From a virus (taxonomy: Duplodnaviria; Caudoviricetes): a DNA stretch of 64,000 nucleotides. Below the pieces are notes generated by a model, which was given only the letters and a program-made list of their open reading frames with translations, ran no database searches and had not been told where the DNA came from. The position numbers and the translations under genes were made by a program. The stretch lies in IMG/VR virus record IMGVR_UViG_3300033066_001296, positions 15,846 to 79,845 of that record. One strand, 5' to 3'. Positions 15,350 through 41,814 of the stretch are shown here, one piece after another; position 1 is the stretch's first letter, and the number at the start of each line of letters is the position of its first letter.

Positions 15350-16000
15350 ATGCAACGACTTGATTTGACAGGTCAAAAGTTCGGTAGACTTACGGTGGTA
15401 GAGTACATCAAAAAGGATGAGAAAGGGAAGATCTGGTGGAAGTGTATTTGCGACTGCGGAGAGTCAATCGAAACCTACACGCTGCTCCTAAGATCGAAAA
15501 AACAACAATCGTGCGGATGCTTGAGGAAAGAGACATCATCCAAGCACTGCGAAGGTATGACCAAGCACGGGCACTACAAAGGCAACAAACCCACGCCAGA
15601 GTGGTCTGCTTGGGCGGCGCTCAGAGCTCGTTGCTACGTTAAAACACACAAACAGTACAAGAACTACGGGGGCAGGGGAATCGCTGTTTGCGAACGCTGG
15701 CACACCTTCGATAACTTTCTGGAAGACATGGGGAAGAGGCCAGACAAAGGCTACTCAATCGATCGAATCGATAACTCGAAAGGATACGAGCCGGGAAACT
15801 GTCGGTGGGCAACTACCACCGAGCAAAACAACAATATGCGAACAAATAGACGAGTTTCTTACAACGGCGAGGAACTTACACTGGCGCAGTGGTGTAAAAG
15901 ACTTCACATATCGAGGGGTCTGTTGAAAGCCCCTTTGCAACGACTTGGTTCTTATGAGAAAGCTTTGGAGGAGATTATTGGCAAGCTCAAAGAACTTTGA
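15350..16000 (+). CDS. HNH homing endonuclease, antisense to the tail operon
   Basis: DLTGQKFGRLTV...WKCICDCG...SCGC...YGGRGIAVCERW..F..F.EDMG.RP...SIDRIDNSKGYEPGNCRWAT..EQ.NN phage HNH family. Confidence 0.92.
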   Translation: MQRLDLTGQKFGRLTVVEYIKKDEKGKIWWKCICDCGESIETYTLLLRSKKQQSCGCLRKETSSKHCEGMTKHGHYKGNKPTPEWSAWAALRARCYVKTHKQYKNYGGRGIAVCERWHTFDNFLEDMGKRPDKGYSIDRIDNSKGYEPGNCRWATTTEQNNNMRTNRRVSYNGEELTLAQWCKRLHISRGLLKAPLQRLGSYEKALEEIIGKLKEL

Positions 16001-33357: not shown

Positions 33358-33978
33358 ATGATTGTCCTCGGGCTCGACATCTCAATGACCGCAACAGGTT
33401 GGGCTATTGCCAATGTAAGCGGTCAGAAACCAAGCTTGCTTCGTTGCGGTGTGATTGAAACCAAGAAGAGCAAAGGTAAAGGTTCCGGTACGCTCGACTC
33501 CATTCGCAGAGCGCACCACATCTATGTTGAACTTGGAAAGGTACTTTCTTCAGAGCTTGGGCTGAAGATCGATCTGATCTGTCTGGAATCGATGAGCTGG
33601 CCCCGCAACGCCTCATCTTCGATCAAGATGGCAATTGCATGGGGGGCGATTGCTCCGCTACTTGCGGATCGCCCCCTCATTCCTGTTGGGCCGATGGCTT
33701 TGAAGTTGGCGGTTAGCGGGAAGAAGACTGCTTCAAAGGCAGAAGTGGCTTCTGGGGTTCGCTCTTTGATGCCGAAGGCGACTTCGCGGGTTTTGAAGGA
33801 GTTTGTCCCGAAGGCTTCTTTGCAGGAGCATTGTTGGGACGCGCTTGGGGCGATCCTGGCTTCGATGAAGACGGAGAAGTTCCAGCTTTTGAAGGCTGGC
33901 CTTTCGGAGCGGAAGACTGCCCCGATTTCGCCACCCGAGGAGCTCCGGGTTTCTGGAGAGCCCCCTGCTTACCCATGA
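33358..33978 (+). CDS. RuvC-like Holliday junction resolvase
   Basis: MIVLGLDISMTATGWA (D), LICLES (E), KLAVSGKKTASKAEV, HCWDALG (D). Confidence 0.88.
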   Translation: MIVLGLDISMTATGWAIANVSGQKPSLLRCGVIETKKSKGKGSGTLDSIRRAHHIYVELGKVLSSELGLKIDLICLESMSWPRNASSSIKMAIAWGAIAPLLADRPLIPVGPMALKLAVSGKKTASKAEVASGVRSLMPKATSRVLKEFVPKASLQEHCWDALGAILASMKTEKFQLLKAGLSERKTAPISPPEELRVSGEPPAYP

Positions 33979-35782
33979 CGCCCATCTGGTTTGGATCTGG
34001 TTGAGGCTGTGAAGCCTGTACCATCGCCTTGACCATCTCCTGACTCTGGGCTGCTGTGTTGGCTACCCAGATGTCCTGGTGCTTCGATCGATACTGAACA
34101 AGCGTCAGATCTCCATCGGGGATTGCACCAAGCTGCAAAGCACCTTCACGATACTCGTTGATCGTGCAGATACCCTGCGCAAGAGCTTCCTTCCACGTCA
34201 TTGCATCAGGCCCCTCTGGCTCTTCGGGAGCTGCTCCTTCTTCGCCTTCTGCACCCTCTTCGCCCGTATCGGCAGACATTGCCGCGTCCTCTTCCGCCTT
34301 CTTCAGCGCATGGATCTCCTTGAGCGGATCCAACTCTGTGAGACCCATCCAATACTTGATGGCTGTCTCCTTGGTCAGAACCTCGGAGTCTTTGCCAGTT
34401 GTAGCAATGCGCTGTGCGGTCTCGATATCTGTGAATGTAGGTTTGAAGTAGTGAGGCCACTGGAGCTCGCAAACCTGTCCATTGCCCACCACACGAGGAA
34501 TCGTAACTTGATCTCCATCTGGCTGCGCGATGACCCTCTTTGGAACGTAGACACGATAGCGAATGCGCCGCACCGAACCATCTTCGTTTTGTACTTCGCG
34601 AATACCCTCTACAGTTCGTACAGCCTTTAGCACCTTCTGGCAGATACGGATGATTGCAGGTCCATACTGTTCTCGGAGAGAGTCTGCCTTCTCGATCATG
34701 GAGTGGAAGATTCTCTCGATCTCCATGGCAGTCTTTTCGCCATTGTTCTGGAAGAGAATCTGATCTGGAACACACTGGCAGAGTCGATAGATGCGCTCCT
34801 CTAGCTTCTCAAGAACTGTGATTCCAATAGTAGGTCCAGAACCGCTCAGTTCGAGATACTGAGCGGTGCTGCTTGGCCCAAGAAACAGAGCATTGTCCGA
34901 ACCCTTTCTAACAGTGCCGGGGTTCTCCATATCTGTAACGATATTAAGCGTTGGATCACAGTTAGATACGGTCCCGTACCAGATTTCAGCGAGCAACTGA
35001 TCGACTGCTTCGAGCATTCGATAGGCACCGTGACAATCGGAGTCCCCATCGATCTCGTCATCCGATCGGAGGTTTTGGATCCACTCGTACGGCACAAACC
35101 CCAGACCGTGAGGAACTGTGTTTCGCTGCATGTACTCCCAGCGAGGTTCCTTGTTACGGCATTTGATGGGCCTCCATACCGTATCGTTCTCTTCGTCCAC
35201 AACGCGCCGATACCAGTACCAGATGGTCTTGTAGCGACCGTCTTCCTGCTTCTCGTCCTTCGGGTACGTATACTGAATGGTCAGCTTCGTGAGCCTGTTG
35301 GAGCCCCTACCATCGAACTCAGGTTCAGTCCAACGAGGGTCCAGCGCTTCAAACTGGCACATACCATCCAGAATCTTGAAACCCACACAAGCCGAGCCTG
35401 TAGCACCTCCGTAGTTACGGGCTTGCGTCATTGCAGCCCAGAACTCGCCCTGCTTTAGAAGTGCGGAGAGGTAATCCTGTGTGCGCTCATCATCAGGCAC
35501 AAGAACTCTTGGTTGCTTCTGATTGGAAAACAGAAGTCCTGTGAAGCGGGAGACAATGTTTCGTACAATGCCAAGTGGAGCGACGGGACGACGGAAGTCA
35601 CGGGGGACATCTCCTGCGTTCTCCATTCCGGGCGGCACAACACCCTCTCGCTGGACGGCATCCCACATATCGCCCGAGAGGACGGGCCTCCCGTTCCATT
35701 CGTGACCCTTTCCGTCGTGCTCGCAGACACGGAAATAGCTCCATAGGTTATTGAGCTCTCTTTGCCGTTTGGAGAGCTTCAT
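33713..35782 (-). CDS. Portal protein (SPP1-like) with long acidic then P/K/S-rich C-terminal tail
   Basis: IVRNIVSRFTGLLFS...ARNYGGATGSA...HGLGFVPY.WIQN...DGDSD...LEAVDQLL portal motifs; start 35782 (alt. 35869). Confidence 0.85.
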   Translation of the reverse strand: MKLSKRQRELNNLWSYFRVCEHDGKGHEWNGRPVLSGDMWDAVQREGVVPPGMENAGDVPRDFRRPVAPLGIVRNIVSRFTGLLFSNQKQPRVLVPDDERTQDYLSALLKQGEFWAAMTQARNYGGATGSACVGFKILDGMCQFEALDPRWTEPEFDGRGSNRLTKLTIQYTYPKDEKQEDGRYKTIWYWYRRVVDEENDTVWRPIKCRNKEPRWEYMQRNTVPHGLGFVPYEWIQNLRSDDEIDGDSDCHGAYRMLEAVDQLLAEIWYGTVSNCDPTLNIVTDMENPGTVRKGSDNALFLGPSSTAQYLELSGSGPTIGITVLEKLEERIYRLCQCVPDQILFQNNGEKTAMEIERIFHSMIEKADSLREQYGPAIIRICQKVLKAVRTVEGIREVQNEDGSVRRIRYRVYVPKRVIAQPDGDQVTIPRVVGNGQVCELQWPHYFKPTFTDIETAQRIATTGKDSEVLTKETAIKYWMGLTELDPLKEIHALKKAEEDAAMSADTGEEGAEGEEGAAPEEPEGPDAMTWKEALAQGICTINEYREGALQLGAIPDGDLTLVQYRSKHQDIWVANTAAQSQEMVKAMVQASQPQPDPNQMGVMGKQGALQKPGAPRVAKSGQSSAPKGQPSKAGTSPSSSKPGSPQARPNNAPAKKPSGQTPSKPAKSPSASKSEPQKPLLPLKQSSSR

Positions 35783-35937
35783 GTGCTTCGATCCAGGCTC
35801 CCCACTCGATTCTCTTAGGAGATCCCCTGTAAATTCCCGAGCTGTGTCGGGTTCGCGCGTTACTGGCATGAGTAAAGATTACACTCCCATTTGATGCGTG
35901 TCATTGTCTTCCTGTACAGATGTTGTACTCTGCCTGT

Positions 35938-36189: not shown

Positions 36190-37037
36190 GCATCTTGAAG
36201 CCCGGACAGCAAAGACCCTCGATCAACCTTACGAATCGGAAGTCCTTTGTAGAGAACTCTGTGCCAGCCCAAGTACCTGTAACGGAGAACTTCGAGTCTC
36301 CCAATCCTGGTCTTGCAATCCAGACTATCGCAAAGCTTCCCAACCAGCGAGGGAAGGGCGGAAGACCTACCAAGGCCCAGAGTCGCGATGCAGGCTACAT
36401 GGAAGGTGCTCAGAAGGCCATCGAGGAGATTCGAGAAGCAAACCCTCCGCTTCTCGCTGCCGCACCTCACCGTTCTGGAAAGATGGAGATTCAGAGATCC
36501 TGGGAAAAGGCATACGACGCCAAGGAGAAGTCTCTCGAGCGGCAGGAAGCCGAAGCCATCCTTGCAGCGCGGAGCGAAAGGCTTGCCGCACTTGAAGAGG
36601 AAACCGCCATTCGCAGAGCCAACCGAAAGGTTGGCGTCGCCGCAGGGCTTGCTGCATTCACGATGGTGCGAACGCTTGGAGATGTGGCAGAGCGACTCGA
36701 CAAAAAGGTGCGAGAATCGAAGGACATGAGCTTCTCGGAGCTTCGGGGTGCAATCAACACACTTTCGGGCTCTGTATCCAAGATGCAGTCCGCAATGGAG
36801 ACTGTGGCACGCCTCGAACGCACGATTACGCGGCGACCGCTTGATGAAGAGGGTGTAAATTCTGTTAGCGAAGACGATCTTTCAAACCTCTCTGTTGAAG
36901 ACGCAGAGAAGATCCTCGAGAACATTCTCAAAACGACCTATCACACGGCAAAGAGCGCAGGAATCAAAATTTACGATGGTACTGCGGAGGTGGTAGAGAC
37001 TTCAGAAGAGGTGAGCAATGGCGAAGTTGAATCCTGA
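36186..37037 (+). CDS. Probable terminase small subunit
   Basis: 283 aa helical protein overlapping the TerL start; GKGGRPTK basic motif and coiled coil. Confidence 0.55.
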   Translation: MSILKPGQQRPSINLTNRKSFVENSVPAQVPVTENFESPNPGLAIQTIAKLPNQRGKGGRPTKAQSRDAGYMEGAQKAIEEIREANPPLLAAAPHRSGKMEIQRSWEKAYDAKEKSLERQEAEAILAARSERLAALEEETAIRRANRKVGVAAGLAAFTMVRTLGDVAERLDKKVRESKDMSFSELRGAINTLSGSVSKMQSAMETVARLERTITRRPLDEEGVNSVSEDDLSNLSVEDAEKILENILKTTYHTAKSAGIKIYDGTAEVVETSEEVSNGEVES

Positions 37038-40000
37038 TCTCATCAAGTTCATCGCAAAAGAAGATCCAGAGCACGCTGTACAACTTGAACGAGACTACAA
37101 GCGTGCCATGATCATTCTTGCGCGTAATGATCCCGCCATGTTTTGTCAGTATGTCCTTCGTAATGGCAAAACAGGAGGTGCGATCTACCTCACACCCGAG
37201 CATGTGGCTTTGCACAAGCTGATTCAGCCGTGCTCTAGAACTGCGGTTTGGACTTATCCTGAGTTTGGCAAAGGTCTAGACCTAAATACTGACATTCCGA
37301 CACCATCAGGATGGGTAAAGATGTCAGATATTCAAGTTGGGTCATCTGTATTCGGATCTGACGGCATAGAGGCTCGTGTCATTTGGGTAAGCCCTATCCA
37401 AAACATCCGAGTTTTTGATGTAGAGTTTGACGATGGTGTAGTTATTCGTTGTGACGAGTCTCATTTGTGGTCCGCATACTCATGCAAAGATCGTCACAAG
37501 AATCCACAACCGCTCAAACTCGTGAGCACGTTGGAAATGTCCAACTCCGTCAAGCATGGAGATAGGAACCAGTGGGGAATTCCAATCGCACCTCCGGTCC
37601 AATATCCATCCAAGCAATTGCCGGTGCATCCATATCTTTTGGGTGCTTGGCTAGGAGATGGTGACAGTAAAGGACTAACTTTGACTTGTCACCAAGAAGA
37701 CATTGCGATTGTGGATCGGTGTTGCCAGCTATCCGGTGAGTTGGTCAAAAAGGTTCCAGACAAGCGTAAGCCTCATGTACTGCGCTGTAAGATTGGTGGT
37801 TCTGAACTTCAGAAAAAGTTCAGGCAGCTTGGGGTTCTTGGAAAAGCAGGTTGCAAATTCATTCCTGCCGAATACCTCACAGCTTCCGAGGACCAAAGGA
37901 GGGAGTTGTTGGCGGGGCTGCTAGACACTGATGGTACTGTCTACACGAGATCTAACGATGTGTCGTTTGTAGAAGTATCTTTTTGTGTTGAACGTCTGGC
38001 ACTCGACACGCTTGAGCTTGTCAGGTCCCTGGGCTTCAAGGCCAGGCTCCGTTCTGAACCCTCTAAACTCTACGGCAGGGTTGTAGGTGCACGACATAGG
38101 ATTTTCTTCACAGCCAGGGAACCAGTCTTCAAACTGGAACGCAAGCTCAACAAGCAGAAACTCCAAGCTGCTCACGGGAGCAAAGCAAACGCGCGATACG
38201 TTGTAAGCGTTACGGAAGTTCCCTCTGTTCCGACCAAATGCATCAAGGTTGATTCGCCTGATCACACCTTTCTTGCGGGGCGCAGCTACACAGTCACGCA
38301 CAACTGTGAAGAGTCTGGAAATTCTGTACTCCTTCGGGATGGCACTTGGAGAAAGATCGAAGATCTGGCAGATGGGAACTTTCACGAACTTCTAACGTGG
38401 GATCTACACCAACCCGCACTCAAACCAGTTACAGGACGTGTAACTGCGAACGGGAAACGTCCCGTGGTTCGTTTCCACTTGGCAAACGGGCACAAGATCG
38501 GCGTTACACAGGAGCATCCTCTTTGCGCTGCGGACGATGTTCAGTGGCGGCAAGCTCAGAATTTGAAGGTGGGGGACCGAATCGTCTGCCTCCGTCATCT
38601 TGAGCTCGAGTCCACAACACCCGAAAGTGACGTACCCTCCGAAGAAGCAGAGATTCTTGGATATCTCCTAGCGGGCGAGGTTCGAGGTCGGAGAGTCTTT
38701 GTTCGCAAGCTCTGGAAAAGCGAGCATTGGAGCTCTCGCCGTGCTCGGATGTTCAAGAAAGCCATGTGGGAGCTTGTGGACCACGATCGGGATTGGTTGG
38801 AAGTGGTGCTCTCCAAGAGCGCTGATTCCACCGATATGCACCCTTACGTGTTCATAAATCAGCTCGCCACAATTCAAGACAAGTATCCCGTGGATCTGAG
38901 CCCAGAAATCTGGAGGCTCCACAAGACGGGACTTCAGAGGCTCCTTACTGCATTCTTTGTAACGGCATTTTGTGATCCTCGGAGGAAGATCTGGACAAGG
39001 GGTCGCACAGTAGGCGTCTCTGACAAGCGCTACCCCAAGGGCTTCGTTCACAAGTGTTACGAAACTGGTGACATGATCCGCAGGCTTGCACTGCGATTGG
39101 GGGTGTCCATAATCGTAAAGCAGGACTATTACTTTACGAAAGAGTGGCTGATCAGCGTACCTAATCCCCAAGTAAAGATCTTTTACCCATCGAAGGTAGA
39201 ATACCCAGACCAGATTCCGTTGATGGAGGCTGTTGAGATTGTAAAGATCGAACATGCAGAGGCGGAAACCTGGGCAGTTGAGATTCTGGATAGCGAGCAC
39301 AGCTACATTTCTGGGGGTGTGCTCTCTCACAACACCACGCAGATGATCGGGCATGTTCTCTGGCGTCTTGGGAAAGACCCCAACATCTCGATTGGTATCT
39401 TTCAGAACTCCAAAGGCTCCGCGATCAACACCCTCAAGACGATCAAGGAGTACATTGAGGATTCTGTAGAGCTCCACGACGTGTTCCCGAACTTGGTTCC
39501 GGGTACAACATGGAGCGAGCATCAGATCACGGTTCCACGAAGCACCTTCCGACGTGACCCTTCCGTCAAGGCGGTGTCTCTCGGATCGAAGTTCATGGGG
39601 GACCGCTTTGATGGTCTGATCCTTGACGACGTGGACAACCCTGATACCGTGCTCACAGAGGAATCGAGAAAGAAGACAGAGGATTGGGTTCGTCGAAGTG
39701 CTCTCTCCCGTCTTACAGAGGAAGCCTGGGCAATCGCCATCGGCAACATCTGGCACGAAGGCGATCTCATGCACCAGCTTGTTAAATCGGGCTGGAATGC
39801 AGTAAAGCACCCTGTCCTTCGCCCTGATGGAACACCTCTCGATCCAGACCGCTTTACGTTGGAGCGCATCTACCACATTCGCGATGTGGATCAGAAGCCC
39901 ATCGAGTTTGAGCGCCTTTACATGCTCAAAGAGCGGAGGGATGGCGATCAGAGATTCCGTATGGAATGGATTGCCAACGCCTTGAAGAAGGGCAATCAGA

Positions 40001-41814
40001 ATATCCTCGTGAAGTGCGAGGAGCACATTCCAAAGATCCCATCGGGATGCCGTGCGATTACGGGCGTGGACCTTGGTGTGAAAAAGAAGGCATCTTCGGA
40101 CCCTACAGTGATCACTACGATTCTCGAAGCCCCAGCCGGGAAGGATCGCTACGAATATCAGATTCTCAACATCAAGAAGGGTCGTTGGGATGCTGATGAG
40201 ATCATGAAGAACATTGCGGAGCAGCAACGCTGGTTCGGATCTCAAGTATTCGTGGAGTCGAACGGCTGTTTTGTTCCGGGCACTCGGGTGCTTACACCCT
40301 CCGGGTATGTGCCTATCGAGAAGGTTGAACCTGGAACTCTGGTGTGGACTCATATGGGACGTTGGAGAAAGGTCATCAATCGATACGACGGCACTGCGCG
40401 GCATGTGACTCCCGTAAAGGCAACCGGAAGTCTTTCAGTAACATGCACACCTAACCACGCATTTTATGTGCGGCAGGCTGGTAGAACATCTGGGCGTGGC
40501 GGGGGCCATCACAGACCGCTGGACCCAAAGGGCTGGTGCTCTATTGGGTTCCCCGACGTGCCCCTGTATCTGAATTTGGCTCTGCCAGTCTGGCCCGCCA
40601 AATCACCGGAGCTTCACTTGGAGCAGACCAAAAAGCTTCCGGCTCGTGCAATTCCTGTTAACGAAAAGTTGGCGCTTGTTCTCGGTCTTTTCATGGCAGA
40701 AGGGCACACAACGACGGGTCAAGTGTTTTGGACGTTGAACAAAAACGAGGGTTATCTTGCAGACCTGATCGACGAGGTGTTGAGTCCTCTTGGCTTCAAA
40801 TCCAGCCGCCGCATTTACAACAACACACTTCGTGTCGTAATTTCTCAGGTGCAACTTGCAAAGACCCTCAAATGTGGAAAGGGTCCGAACAAATGCCTGC
40901 CATTGGATTGGATGGGGTGGCCTCTGGATCTGCGTATTGCTCTTGTCAGAGGTTGGCTACTCGGAGATGGCTGTGCAGGTAAGAACGGCAACAGAAAGAA
41001 GTTGCCGTCTATTAGTCTTTCTGGTGTGACGATCTCTAGGGATTGGGCTTTGTTTGTGAGGTCAACCCTTCATCAAGCTGGAATCACTGTTGCGCTTAGG
41101 GAGTCCACACGTAAACAATCTGTGATCGAAGGGCGCATAGTTAATAGAAATCCGTCGTTCCTCTTGAATCTTACACAAGATGGTTCTGAGCAACTTCGCA
41201 AGCACATGACGCATTCTGTCGAAGCTGAGCGTTGGGGAGCAAAGTGGTGGGATCAGTCTCTTCCAAATGCAAGGCAGCATGGATGTCCGACTGTAATCCA
41301 AGCTGATGGTGTTTGGGCTCGAATGAAAGATCATGATCTAGACCCAAAGAAGACGTACATTCCATACGAAAACGGGCCTGTTCATAATCTAGTTGTTGAG
41401 GAAGATGAGTCCTTCACTGTTGAGGATTTTGTTGTTCACAATGCCCAGGACTTTCTTGTTCAGCTCATCAACTTGTCGGGTTCCAACTTCCGCGTTACAC
41501 CCTTCAACACAGGCCGTAACAAGTACGATCCAATGTACGGTATCGAGTCTCTTGCGGGGGAAATGGCGGTTGGTTACAACGAGGGCTCTGAGAATGAGTT
41601 CGGCCTCTGGTATTTCCCTTCGATCGATGGGACGCTCGAGAGCGCAGACGATGAGATCCAGGAGCTCGTTCAAGAGATGCTCGCGTACACGCCGGGGGAT
41701 CACACGGGCGACCTTCTCATGTCGCTCTGGATTGCCCGTGAAGGCGCAAGAAACTCGCGGATTCAAGTGAAAGAATCCAAGTTTCAGTGGGGTCGCCTTC
41801 GTCTTCGCCACTGA
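37018..41814 (+). CDS. terL: Terminase large subunit with three inteins (519 aa after removal)
   Basis: Reconstituted Walker A PEFGK|TT, Walker B LILDD, nuclease GVDLG...SD and GDHTGDLLMSLWIA; three Hint/LAGLIDADG insertions. Confidence 0.93.
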   Translation: MAKLNPDLIKFIAKEDPEHAVQLERDYKRAMIILARNDPAMFCQYVLRNGKTGGAIYLTPEHVALHKLIQPCSRTAVWTYPEFGKGLDLNTDIPTPSGWVKMSDIQVGSSVFGSDGIEARVIWVSPIQNIRVFDVEFDDGVVIRCDESHLWSAYSCKDRHKNPQPLKLVSTLEMSNSVKHGDRNQWGIPIAPPVQYPSKQLPVHPYLLGAWLGDGDSKGLTLTCHQEDIAIVDRCCQLSGELVKKVPDKRKPHVLRCKIGGSELQKKFRQLGVLGKAGCKFIPAEYLTASEDQRRELLAGLLDTDGTVYTRSNDVSFVEVSFCVERLALDTLELVRSLGFKARLRSEPSKLYGRVVGARHRIFFTAREPVFKLERKLNKQKLQAAHGSKANARYVVSVTEVPSVPTKCIKVDSPDHTFLAGRSYTVTHNCEESGNSVLLRDGTWRKIEDLADGNFHELLTWDLHQPALKPVTGRVTANGKRPVVRFHLANGHKIGVTQEHPLCAADDVQWRQAQNLKVGDRIVCLRHLELESTTPESDVPSEEAEILGYLLAGEVRGRRVFVRKLWKSEHWSSRRARMFKKAMWELVDHDRDWLEVVLSKSADSTDMHPYVFINQLATIQDKYPVDLSPEIWRLHKTGLQRLLTAFFVTAFCDPRRKIWTRGRTVGVSDKRYPKGFVHKCYETGDMIRRLALRLGVSIIVKQDYYFTKEWLISVPNPQVKIFYPSKVEYPDQIPLMEAVEIVKIEHAEAETWAVEILDSEHSYISGGVLSHNTTQMIGHVLWRLGKDPNISIGIFQNSKGSAINTLKTIKEYIEDSVELHDVFPNLVPGTTWSEHQITVPRSTFRRDPSVKAVSLGSKFMGDRFDGLILDDVDNPDTVLTEESRKKTEDWVRRSALSRLTEEAWAIAIGNIWHEGDLMHQLVKSGWNAVKHPVLRPDGTPLDPDRFTLERIYHIRDVDQKPIEFERLYMLKERRDGDQRFRMEWIANALKKGNQNILVKCEEHIPKIPSGCRAITGVDLGVKKKASSDPTVITTILEAPAGKDRYEYQILNIKKGRWDADEIMKNIAEQQRWFGSQVFVESNGCFVPGTRVLTPSGYVPIEKVEPGTLVWTHMGRWRKVINRYDGTARHVTPVKATGSLSVTCTPNHAFYVRQAGRTSGRGGGHHRPLDPKGWCSIGFPDVPLYLNLALPVWPAKSPELHLEQTKKLPARAIPVNEKLALVLGLFMAEGHTTTGQVFWTLNKNEGYLADLIDEVLSPLGFKSSRRIYNNTLRVVISQVQLAKTLKCGKGPNKCLPLDWMGWPLDLRIALVRGWLLGDGCAGKNGNRKKLPSISLSGVTISRDWALFVRSTLHQAGITVALRESTRKQSVIEGRIVNRNPSFLLNLTQDGSEQLRKHMTHSVEAERWGAKWWDQSLPNARQHGCPTVIQADGVWARMKDHDLDPKKTYIPYENGPVHNLVVEEDESFTVEDFVVHNAQDFLVQLINLSGSNFRVTPFNTGRNKYDPMYGIESLAGEMAVGYNEGSENEFGLWYFPSIDGTLESADDEIQELVQEMLAYTPGDHTGDLLMSLWIAREGARNSRIQVKESKFQWGRLRLRH
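37273..38304 (+). mobile_element. Intein 1 (344 aa, class 3 WCT type, Gly1) with LAGLIDADG endonuclease
   Basis: GLDLNTDIPTPSGW start; block B CDESHLW, block F TKCIKV, block G VTHN; YLLGAWLGDG and LLAGLLDTDG motifs. Confidence 0.9.
38305..39333 (+). mobile_element. Intein 2 (343 aa, class 1, Cys1) with degenerate LAGLIDADG region
   Basis: CEESGNSVLLRDG start, TQEHP block B, ends GGVLSHN before Thr; EILGYLLAGE remnant. Confidence 0.88.
40267..41442 (+). mobile_element. Intein 3 (392 aa, Cys1) with LAGLIDADG endonuclease, followed by Ala
   Basis: CFVPGTRVLTPSG start, CTPNHAF block B, LGLFMAEG and VRGWLLGDG motifs, ends DFVVHN then GCC (Ala). Confidence 0.88.

Follow-up and report, generated by a model that had tools for sequence, protein, structure and literature searches.

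Several systems close to the one reported here have been described. Class-3 inteins are defined by a Trp at block B:12, a Cys at block F:4 and a Thr at block G:5 (PMC2807308). Inteins of this class in mycobacteriophage Bethlehem DnaB (PMC2807308) and at the TerL1-a site of the large terminase (TerL; PMC5050341) have a non-nucleophilic residue 1, the Trp/Cys/Thr (WCT) triplet, a terminal His-Asn and a LAGLIDADG endonuclease, and are inserted between the Lys and Thr of the Walker A motif (P-loop). TerL1-a and TerL1-b lie one residue apart in that loop (Kelley et al., 2016; PMC5050341), and two inteins within one essential P-loop ATPase are known from Haloferax MCM (MCM-a and MCM-d; PMC10643990) and M. 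smegmatis DnaB (DnaBi1 and DnaBi2; PMC6195587). Here we analyzed the TerL gene in a 64,000-nt stretch of DNA, hereafter the window, from a virus of the Caudoviricetes (IMG/VR record IMGVR_UViG_3300033066_001296, positions 15,846 to 79,845). Its first intein (I1), which shares all of the above features with the class-3 inteins just described, directly abuts a second, I2, at a single P-loop site.

Intein biology assumes that flanking exteins supply the -1 and +1 residues. In this gene one intein acts as the other's "extein," and a single Cys would have a role in both class-3 and class-1 chemistries. Each intein alone belongs to a known class, and multiple inteins per gene and P-loop hot spots are already known; the present gene has two inteins at one insertion boundary without extein between them. 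We found no published case of two inteins lacking an intervening extein in 8.4 million open-access papers and preprints (subscription literature was outside our scope) or in the main intein surveys.

Anatomy of the tandem junction

The features of the tandem and its flank, with window coordinates, strand and basis, are:

37018..41814, +: TerL precursor open reading frame (ORF), 1598 amino acids (aa), three inteins (ORF list, translation, NF033889, PHROG 38)
37018..37272, +: N-extein, aa 1-85, Walker A end ...YPEFGK, with K85 at 37270-37272 (alignment, DNA)
37273..38304, +: I1, 344 aa, G86...VTHN429, class-3-type, LAGLIDADG (Pfam PF14528/PF05204; natural alleles)
37462..37470, +: I1 block B, H149-L150-W151, Trp of WCT (H149 and W151 invariant in 25 tandem alleles)
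37636..37665, +: I1 LAGLIDADG motif 1, ..LGAWLGDGD.. (G209, W211, L212, G213, D214 and G215 invariant in the 25 alleles)
37906..37935, +: I1 LAGLIDADG motif 2, ..LLAGLLDTDG.. (L297, L298, G300, D303, T304, D305 and G306 invariant in the 25 alleles)
38239..38241, +: I1 block F Cys408, predicted class-3 nucleophile (invariant; role from Tori et al., 2010)
38296..38304, +: I1 block G, T427-H428-N429, i.e., WCT Thr, penultimate His and terminal Asn (invariant in the 25 alleles)
38305..38307, +: Cys430, the +1 position of I1 and residue 1 (nucleophile) of I2 (invariant; DNA AAC/TGT)
38305..39333, +: I2, 343 aa, C430...LSHN772, class-1 (PF14890, TIGR01445, AlphaFold2 (AF2), Foldseek)
38506..38517, +: I2 block B, T497-Q-E-H500, TxxH (H500 invariant and T497 nearly so in 36 I2 homologues)
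38617..39204, +: I2 central LAGLIDADG-fold domain (fold match; alignment columns)
39331..39336, +: I2 terminal Asn772, then Thr773, the I2 +1 residue and, after double excision, the Walker A Thr (alignment, DNA)

With slashes marking intein boundaries, the protein reads ...WTYPEFGK85/G86...VTHN429/C430...LSHN772/T773TQ.... These boundaries were set by natural alleles that carry I1 alone (GK/A or G...THN/T or S), I2 alone (GK/C...HN/T) or both. The corresponding DNA is TTT GGC AAA/GGT CTA at K85/G86, where I1 starts (37273); ACG CAC AAC/TGT GAA GAG at N429/C430, where I1 ends (38304) and I2 starts (38305); and TCT CAC AAC/ACC ACG CAG at N772/T773, where I2 ends (39333). Translation and junction DNA therefore bear out the original prediction, made from the sequence of the window, that inteins of 344 and 343 aa occupy one GK/T site with zero extein codons between them, at exactly the coordinates it gave, and that Cys1 of I2 is the +1 residue of I1. 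Removal of both inteins restores PEFGK-TT, as had also been proposed, which matches the homologue sequence; K85 is invariant in an alignment of 41 homologues.

I1 is predicted from these residues to be a class-3 intein with an intact LAGLIDADG homing endonuclease. Its residue 1 is non-nucleophilic (G86; G, A, D, L, E or P in homologues), W151, C408 and T427 are invariant in the 25 tandem alleles, and T427-H428-N429 is kept in two further tandems whose I1 is a mini-intein. Pfam LAGLIDADG_3 and Hom_end (PF14528, PF05204) were found in I1, and both of its LAGLIDADG motifs, including the acidic residues of LGDGD and LLDTDG, are invariant in the 25 alleles, so that they are intact as previously read. 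I1 belongs to a broad family that targets the P-loops of terminases, DnaB and FtsK, and its tblastn matches include, at 34-37% identity, inteins in TerL of the mycobacteriophages Eureka, Omega and LittleE. Splicing of class-3 inteins depends wholly on the block F Cys, via a block F branched intermediate. These inteins tend to have Ser or Thr at +1; however, the +1 residue of I1 is Cys430, residue 1 of I2. Cys at +1 occurs in 1 of the 34 class-3 inteins of Tori et al., 2010 (PMC2807308). Cys appears acceptable at this position, given that the class-3 relatives P0142, P0174 and P0202 are followed by an extein Cys. These same three proteins were considered as further tandems and rejected, because the Cys of their THN/C is an extein residue. 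P0174 (1242 aa), from another terminase family, carries two class-3 inteins 27 extein residues apart in the layout ..QNGK/N...PTHN/CILEIRELAGLFVIGESLIIHTSHEFK/ALDTE...THN/TSQ, in which the +1 residue of the first intein is the extein Cys.

I2 is a class-1 intein unrelated to I1. It has C430, a TxxH motif (T497..H500), H771-N772 and T773 at +1; homologue alignments show no variation at C430, H771 or N772 and almost none at T773. Pfam Intein_splicing (PF14890) scored 32.1 bits on I2 alone (cut-off 35.8) and 37.3 when the whole protein was searched, and NCBIfam intein_Nterm (TIGR01445) was also found. An AF2 model built from an alignment of 36 homologues shows a HINT fold with pLDDT 95.3, and Foldseek matched this model to TliVMA (7qsu; E 8e-17), PhoVMA (7qst), PI-SceI (1vde) and PI-PfuI (1dq3), with E 8e-17 to 6e-9 and probability 1.00 to many solved inteins. 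As modelled, I2 retains both HINT and LAGLIDADG folds. The original prediction had described I2 as having an atypical block A, an Ala at block F position 4 and decayed LAGLIDADG motifs. Block A is not atypical, since CEESGNSVLLRDG fits the family consensus CEvxGtxVLLADGTW. The Ala is present, the family having Ala, Gly or Ser instead of Asp at that position. The supposed decay holds for the catalytic residues, which are unconserved across the family, but not for the domain, the fold of which is confidently kept. The window's I2 gave no Pfam LAGLIDADG match, and most homologues read LLAGR and AF[MLH]x at the helix ends; only in the subclade of the window's I2 do LLAGE and AFCD place acids at or beside the canonical positions, possibly one position out of register. 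The I2 endonuclease is probably inactive in most lineages. BLASTP of I1 against I2 revealed no sequence similarity (E = 0.62); therefore, the tandem is not a duplication.

Occurrence of the tandem and history of its inteins

At least 18 public runs contain the window stretch; they belong to 9 wastewater, river, freshwater and activated-sludge studies. Contigs of four studies (a wastewater RNA library, freshwater, river and activated sludge) cross 38304/38305 with no joint or indel, and one sample (X3) also has a P0004-like contig of a related strain with the same THN/CEES junction. A search of 5.8 billion proteins returned ~25 clusters covering both inteins, and a junction-spanning query against 1.84 billion representatives added further tandem clusters, including P0177 and P0212. 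In total, ~31 protein clusters of 31-76% identity, drawn from JGI, ENA, Logan and NCBI, have THN/C followed by an I2-family intein, and all are TerL. The tandem is common in environmental phages. No tandem in a non-TerL host was present among the best 150 of 3416 matches to the junction query, every tandem being in TerL. The tandem-bearing proteins, of 1200-1600 aa, are unnamed or called "hypothetical protein" in their source databases. The 3' part of I2 (39114-39261) is covered in river and freshwater runs by a pair of alternative 148-nt contigs that differ in depth, and longer contigs break at this segment near the I2/extein boundary. We read these variants as a sign either of microdiversity among strains or of a recombination boundary close to where I2 ends.

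Natural alleles were used to reconstruct how the two inteins came to share a site. The close extein clade comprises 40 ingroup rows, of which 39 are N-terminally complete (P0123 is cut), and an I2-family intein occurs in 39/39 of the complete members. The I2 tree also reproduces the clades of the extein tree. Since I2 tracks the extein and every complete close allele has an I2-family intein, I2 appears to be an old resident. A search of terminases for single-intein and empty alleles, as suggested by the original prediction, found I1-only and I2-only alleles, although no close intein-free allele was retrieved when shorter proteins were sought, in a word-based search that may have missed some. 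The only match of ~520 aa, a 514-aa protein at 25% identity, was without a GK[ST] motif.

The I2 family occurs at three insertion points (R/T, K/T and K/T) within ~50 residues of the TerL ATPase. Besides the P-loop, these are a site u, 11 residues upstream (..NLR/C...SHN/TLIWTYPEFGK; carriers P0124, P0125 and P0013), equivalent to ~37237/37238 in the window (R73/T74), and a site d, 39 residues downstream (..AMK/C...SHN/TYIAESPEL; carriers P0126-P0130, P0071, P0075 and P0023-25), equivalent to ~39450/39451. The I2 tree places the copies from u and d inside the P-loop copies; therefore, the intein changed site within one protein.

The position of I1 is always GK/ and its presence is patchy. The tandem P0018 is 99.4% identical to the I2-only P0041 over the exteins and 98.9% over I2, and its length without I1 is exactly the 878 residues of P0041. 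In the DNA, this pair differs by an exact 1023-nt indel at AAG/TGC in genes that are 96.4% identical (94 nt changes, 7 aa changes), with synonymous changes in the two codons directly before the insertion site. I1 is just as cleanly present or absent when P0013 is compared with P0124 (I2 at site u), or the 1214-aa with the 867-aa members of a single 90% cluster (I2 at site d). Between P0004 and P0007, identity is 99.8% over the exteins and 99.4% over I2 but only 65% over I1, and each of these I1 types recurs in the P0006/P0008 background. In a tree of 117 I1-family inteins, Cys-followed copies occupy at least 3 well-supported separate positions, interspersed with Ser/Thr-followed copies in terminases, DnaB and FtsK. 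I1-only alleles occur only in distant TerL clades (extein identity 24-38%).

Read most simply, these patterns mean that alleles already occupied by I2 have time and again received, or exchanged among themselves, a mobile class-3 P-loop intein, much as double-intein alleles of Haloferax MCM arise from singly occupied ones (PMC10643990). The expectation that one intein had entered a site occupied by the other is therefore borne out, with I1 as the mobile and I2 as the resident partner. The insertion point of I1 would be immediately 3' of the Lys codon, both where the extein Thr codon follows and where I2's Cys codon does; with I2 at the P-loop site, this insertion would generate I1-I2 without extein between. 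In P0177 (1007 aa) and P0212 (1102 aa), both tandems, I1 is a mini-intein of 165 and 147 aa, respectively, with no endonuclease. Both keep THN/C (..PTHN/C in P0177 and ..VTHN/C in P0212), and the class-1 partner in P0177 has a Pfam LAGLIDADG_3 match. Therefore, the stacked pair appears to last long enough for the endonuclease of either partner to decay.

Splicing of the pair and rival readings

TerL is an essential phage protein. Since its Walker A motif is split, both inteins would have to splice. I1 upstream of I2 is the only order that always gives both inteins a +1 nucleophile: C430 (I2 Cys1) would serve I1, and extein Thr773 would serve I2. The reverse order would be unworkable because the first residue of a class-3 intein, Gly or Ala, could not serve I2 as its +1 residue. 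We consider it probable that the pair consists of two autonomous, unrelated inteins, an old resident I2 and a mobile I1, most likely spliced by two ordinary sequential reactions.

Three routes to the same mature protein can be drawn. If I1 splices first (route A), C408 would attack the K85 carbonyl, the acyl group would pass to the C430 thiol, N429 would cyclise and an S-to-N shift would give GK-C[I2], the form of the natural I2-only allele, from which I2 would splice canonically. If I2 splices first (route B), its excision would leave GK-[I1]-T, the natural I1-only form, with I1's preferred Thr at +1. In a relay (route C), the N-extein thioester on C430 would be used directly by I2 for transesterification to T773. 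Because natural I2-only (GK/C) and I1-only (THN/T) alleles exist, each intermediate should be a viable precursor and either splicing order is chemically plausible; the ordered or interdependent splicing that the original prediction held to be necessary is thus not established, and the data give no support to the possible regulatory switch on packaging that it envisaged. I1 gain or loss comes without accompanying sequence changes in either partner, which argues for independent modules (route A or B). We lean slightly to I1 first, since I1 is translated and foldable before I2 is complete. On the other side, Ser or Thr at +1 energetically favours class-3 transfer (the second transesterification), according to PMC2807308, which slightly favours route B or C.

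Several points weigh against this account of an autonomous pair. I1 acting on Cys430 may be inefficient, since the class-3 +1 residue is nearly always Ser or Thr, and splicing function is deduced from conservation and the essentiality of TerL. An AF2 model of the tandem folds both inteins with a pTM of 0.52, and the last strand of I1 (model residues 353-358) has pLDDT < 50; both active sites may be unable to form together around one peptide bond, although this modelled point carries little weight. The 3' half of the I1 target differs strongly between I2-occupied (TGTGAAGAG...) and empty (ACCACGCAG...) sites, and no similarity was evident between I2 5' DNA and the empty-site 3' half-site. Cutting of an I2-occupied site by the I1 endonuclease is hard to account for with such target DNA. 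Moreover, if a break were repaired with an I1-only allele as donor, I2 should be replaced and no tandem should form. The first stacking event was for this reason probably an illegitimate join, after which spread of the tandem could use homology in the N-extein and I2. For any single allele pair, precise loss of I1 instead of gain is also possible.

Among rival explanations of the arrangement, a chimera in which assembly joined two alleles, one with I1 and one with I2, which the original prediction had named as one possible refutation, is scarcely credible. Related strains with different I1 copies do share a sample (X3), as the P0004-like junction contig indicates, but this co-occurring variant has the identical THN/CEES junction, contigs of four independent studies bridge the junction without a joint, and the layout recurs in ~31 clusters of JGI, ENA, Logan and NCBI. 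Hardly more probable is a dead gene, i.e., a TerL pseudogene or non-splicing relic with another terminase doing the packaging. The deduction of splicing from sequence, the Ala at I2 block F position 4 and the Ala that follows I3, a third intein of this gene described below, would suit such a relic. The 1598-codon frame is nevertheless intact, ~31 clusters, down to ~31% identity, conserve every catalytic residue of the two inteins and of the extein, and differences between close alleles are overwhelmingly synonymous (the 94 nt and 7 aa changes given above), features that fit a working gene. The phage is, in addition, found at depth in many samples, with TerL in a normal module of portal, small-subunit candidate and TerL. 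It is somewhat easier to imagine the opposite history, in which I2 was inserted between the terminal Asn of a resident I1 and the extein Thr, but this too is improbable. Such an event would likewise leave I1 ahead of I2; the I2 family was once mobile, having changed position in the TerL clade (sites u, P-loop and d); and P0177 pairs an I2 that keeps its Pfam LAGLIDADG match with a mini-I1. However, it is I2 whose phylogeny follows the extein and which is in every N-terminally complete close allele, I1 that is patchy and swapped between near-identical backgrounds, and I1-only alleles are confined to distant TerL clades (24-38% extein identity). The catalytic acids of I2 are, furthermore, unconserved.

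The rival to which we give most credence, though we still think it unlikely, concerns the chemistry. In an acyl relay, I1-I2 would act as one composite unit that passes the K85 acyl group to C408-S, then C430-S, then Thr773; Asn772 would cyclise, I1-I2 would leave as one 687-aa product, and cyclisation of N429 would be unneeded. Cys430 is part of both active sites, class-1 splicing normally passes through a thioester on Cys1 (PMC2807308), and transfer from thioester to a Thr773 oxy-ester would give the energetic pull that is lacking with Cys at +1. Against this, I1 H428 and N429 are invariant in the 25 tandem alleles, and His-Asn is kept even in P0177 and P0212, whose I1 is probably old and immobile, suggesting that selection still maintains Asn cyclisation by I1. 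For a relay, moreover, the two HINT active sites would have to be in place around one bond simultaneously, which the AF2 tandem model does not show with confidence. We give a similarly low standing to the broader idea that I1-I2 is a single composite splicing device sharing one Cys, or that C408/C430 forms a redox trap making TerL maturation and packaging conditional. Two autonomous inteins spliced in sequence remain our preferred reading.

The surrounding gene and comparison with known systems

Further features of the gene and its neighbourhood are:

33713-35869, -: divergent portal gene, in the same module as TerL
39334..40266, +: middle extein, aa 773-1083, remaining ATPase domain and start of the nuclease domain (PHROG 38, alignment)
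40267..41442, +: third intein (I3), aa 1084-1475, CFVPG...VVHN, followed by Ala1476, outside the tandem (Pfam Hint_2)
41443..41814, +: C-extein, aa 1476-1598, plus stop codon (alignment)

TerL sits in the head-and-packaging module of the phage genome, whose source contig measures 79.8 kb, in the order portal, small LexA-like regulator, 283-aa candidate small terminase subunit, TerL and ribonucleotide reductase. The protein has the Walker A ATPase and RNase H-like nuclease domain of a terminase. NCBIfam NF033889 (termin_lrg_T7) matched it partially at 61.5 bits, under its cut-off of 150, because the inteins break up the match, and PHROG 38 (terminase large subunit) matched the middle extein (E 8.5e-42); both the T7-type model and PHROG 38 match the ORF in extein parts only. 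Taking out the inteins gives PEFGK-TTQ and ESNG-AQDF, the same as in homologues, and a predicted spliced product of ~519 aa.

I3 lies in the TerL nuclease domain and has a Hint_2 N-terminus and two LAGLIDADG motifs. Its +1 residue is Ala rather than Cys, Ser or Thr (VESNG/CFVPGT...VVHN/AQDF), and HN/AQD is present in 7/7 I3-bearing sequences (P0002/P0003, the window's own; P0016, P0063, P0071, P0075 and P0123). One of the seven has a distant extein; I3-free alleles read ESNGAQDF. Antisense endonucleases have been reported in actinophage inteins, and a 578-aa antisense ORF (38668-40404, -) was considered as one. We judged it spurious: it has no Pfam match, and it is open because TerL shares its codon register and sense codons 552-1139 are without TTA, CTA and TCA. 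Within TerL, 19/19 of these three codons are inside inteins and 0 occur in 519 extein codons (~5 expected), which suggests that inteins and exteins differ in codon usage.

The tandem is a case of inteins piling up on one another at the P-loop hot spot of terminases, and it offers a natural system in which to ask whether intein active sites are truly modular, how a homing endonuclease invades a site with a replaced 3' half, and whether acyl groups can be relayed between inteins. It also bears on the annotation of 1200-1600-aa proteins that are unnamed or labelled hypothetical, and linker-free tandems of orthogonal inteins could serve protein engineering.

In comparison with its closest relatives, I1 differs from the Bethlehem DnaB and TerL1-a inteins in that its +1 residue is the catalytic Cys1 of a second intein instead of an extein Ser or Thr. 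I2 resembles TliVMA, PhoVMA, PI-SceI and PI-PfuI in Cys1, TxxH, terminal His-Asn, Thr at +1 and the HINT and LAGLIDADG folds; unlike canonical class-1 inteins, it has another intein's terminal Asn as its -1 residue, Ala, Gly or Ser at block F4, and unconserved acids. As described for Haloferax MCM (PMC10643990) and M. smegmatis DnaB (PMC6195587), those double inteins also arose by invasion of singly occupied, not empty, alleles, and one partner may lack an active endonuclease. However, those inteins are separated by extein and have independent junctions, whereas I1 and I2 share the N429-C430 bond and one Cys. TerL1-a and TerL1-b likewise represent a TerL Walker A hot spot hit independently by different inteins; joint occupancy in one gene is not described in that work (PMC5050341), whereas in the window a single boundary of that hot spot holds two inteins.

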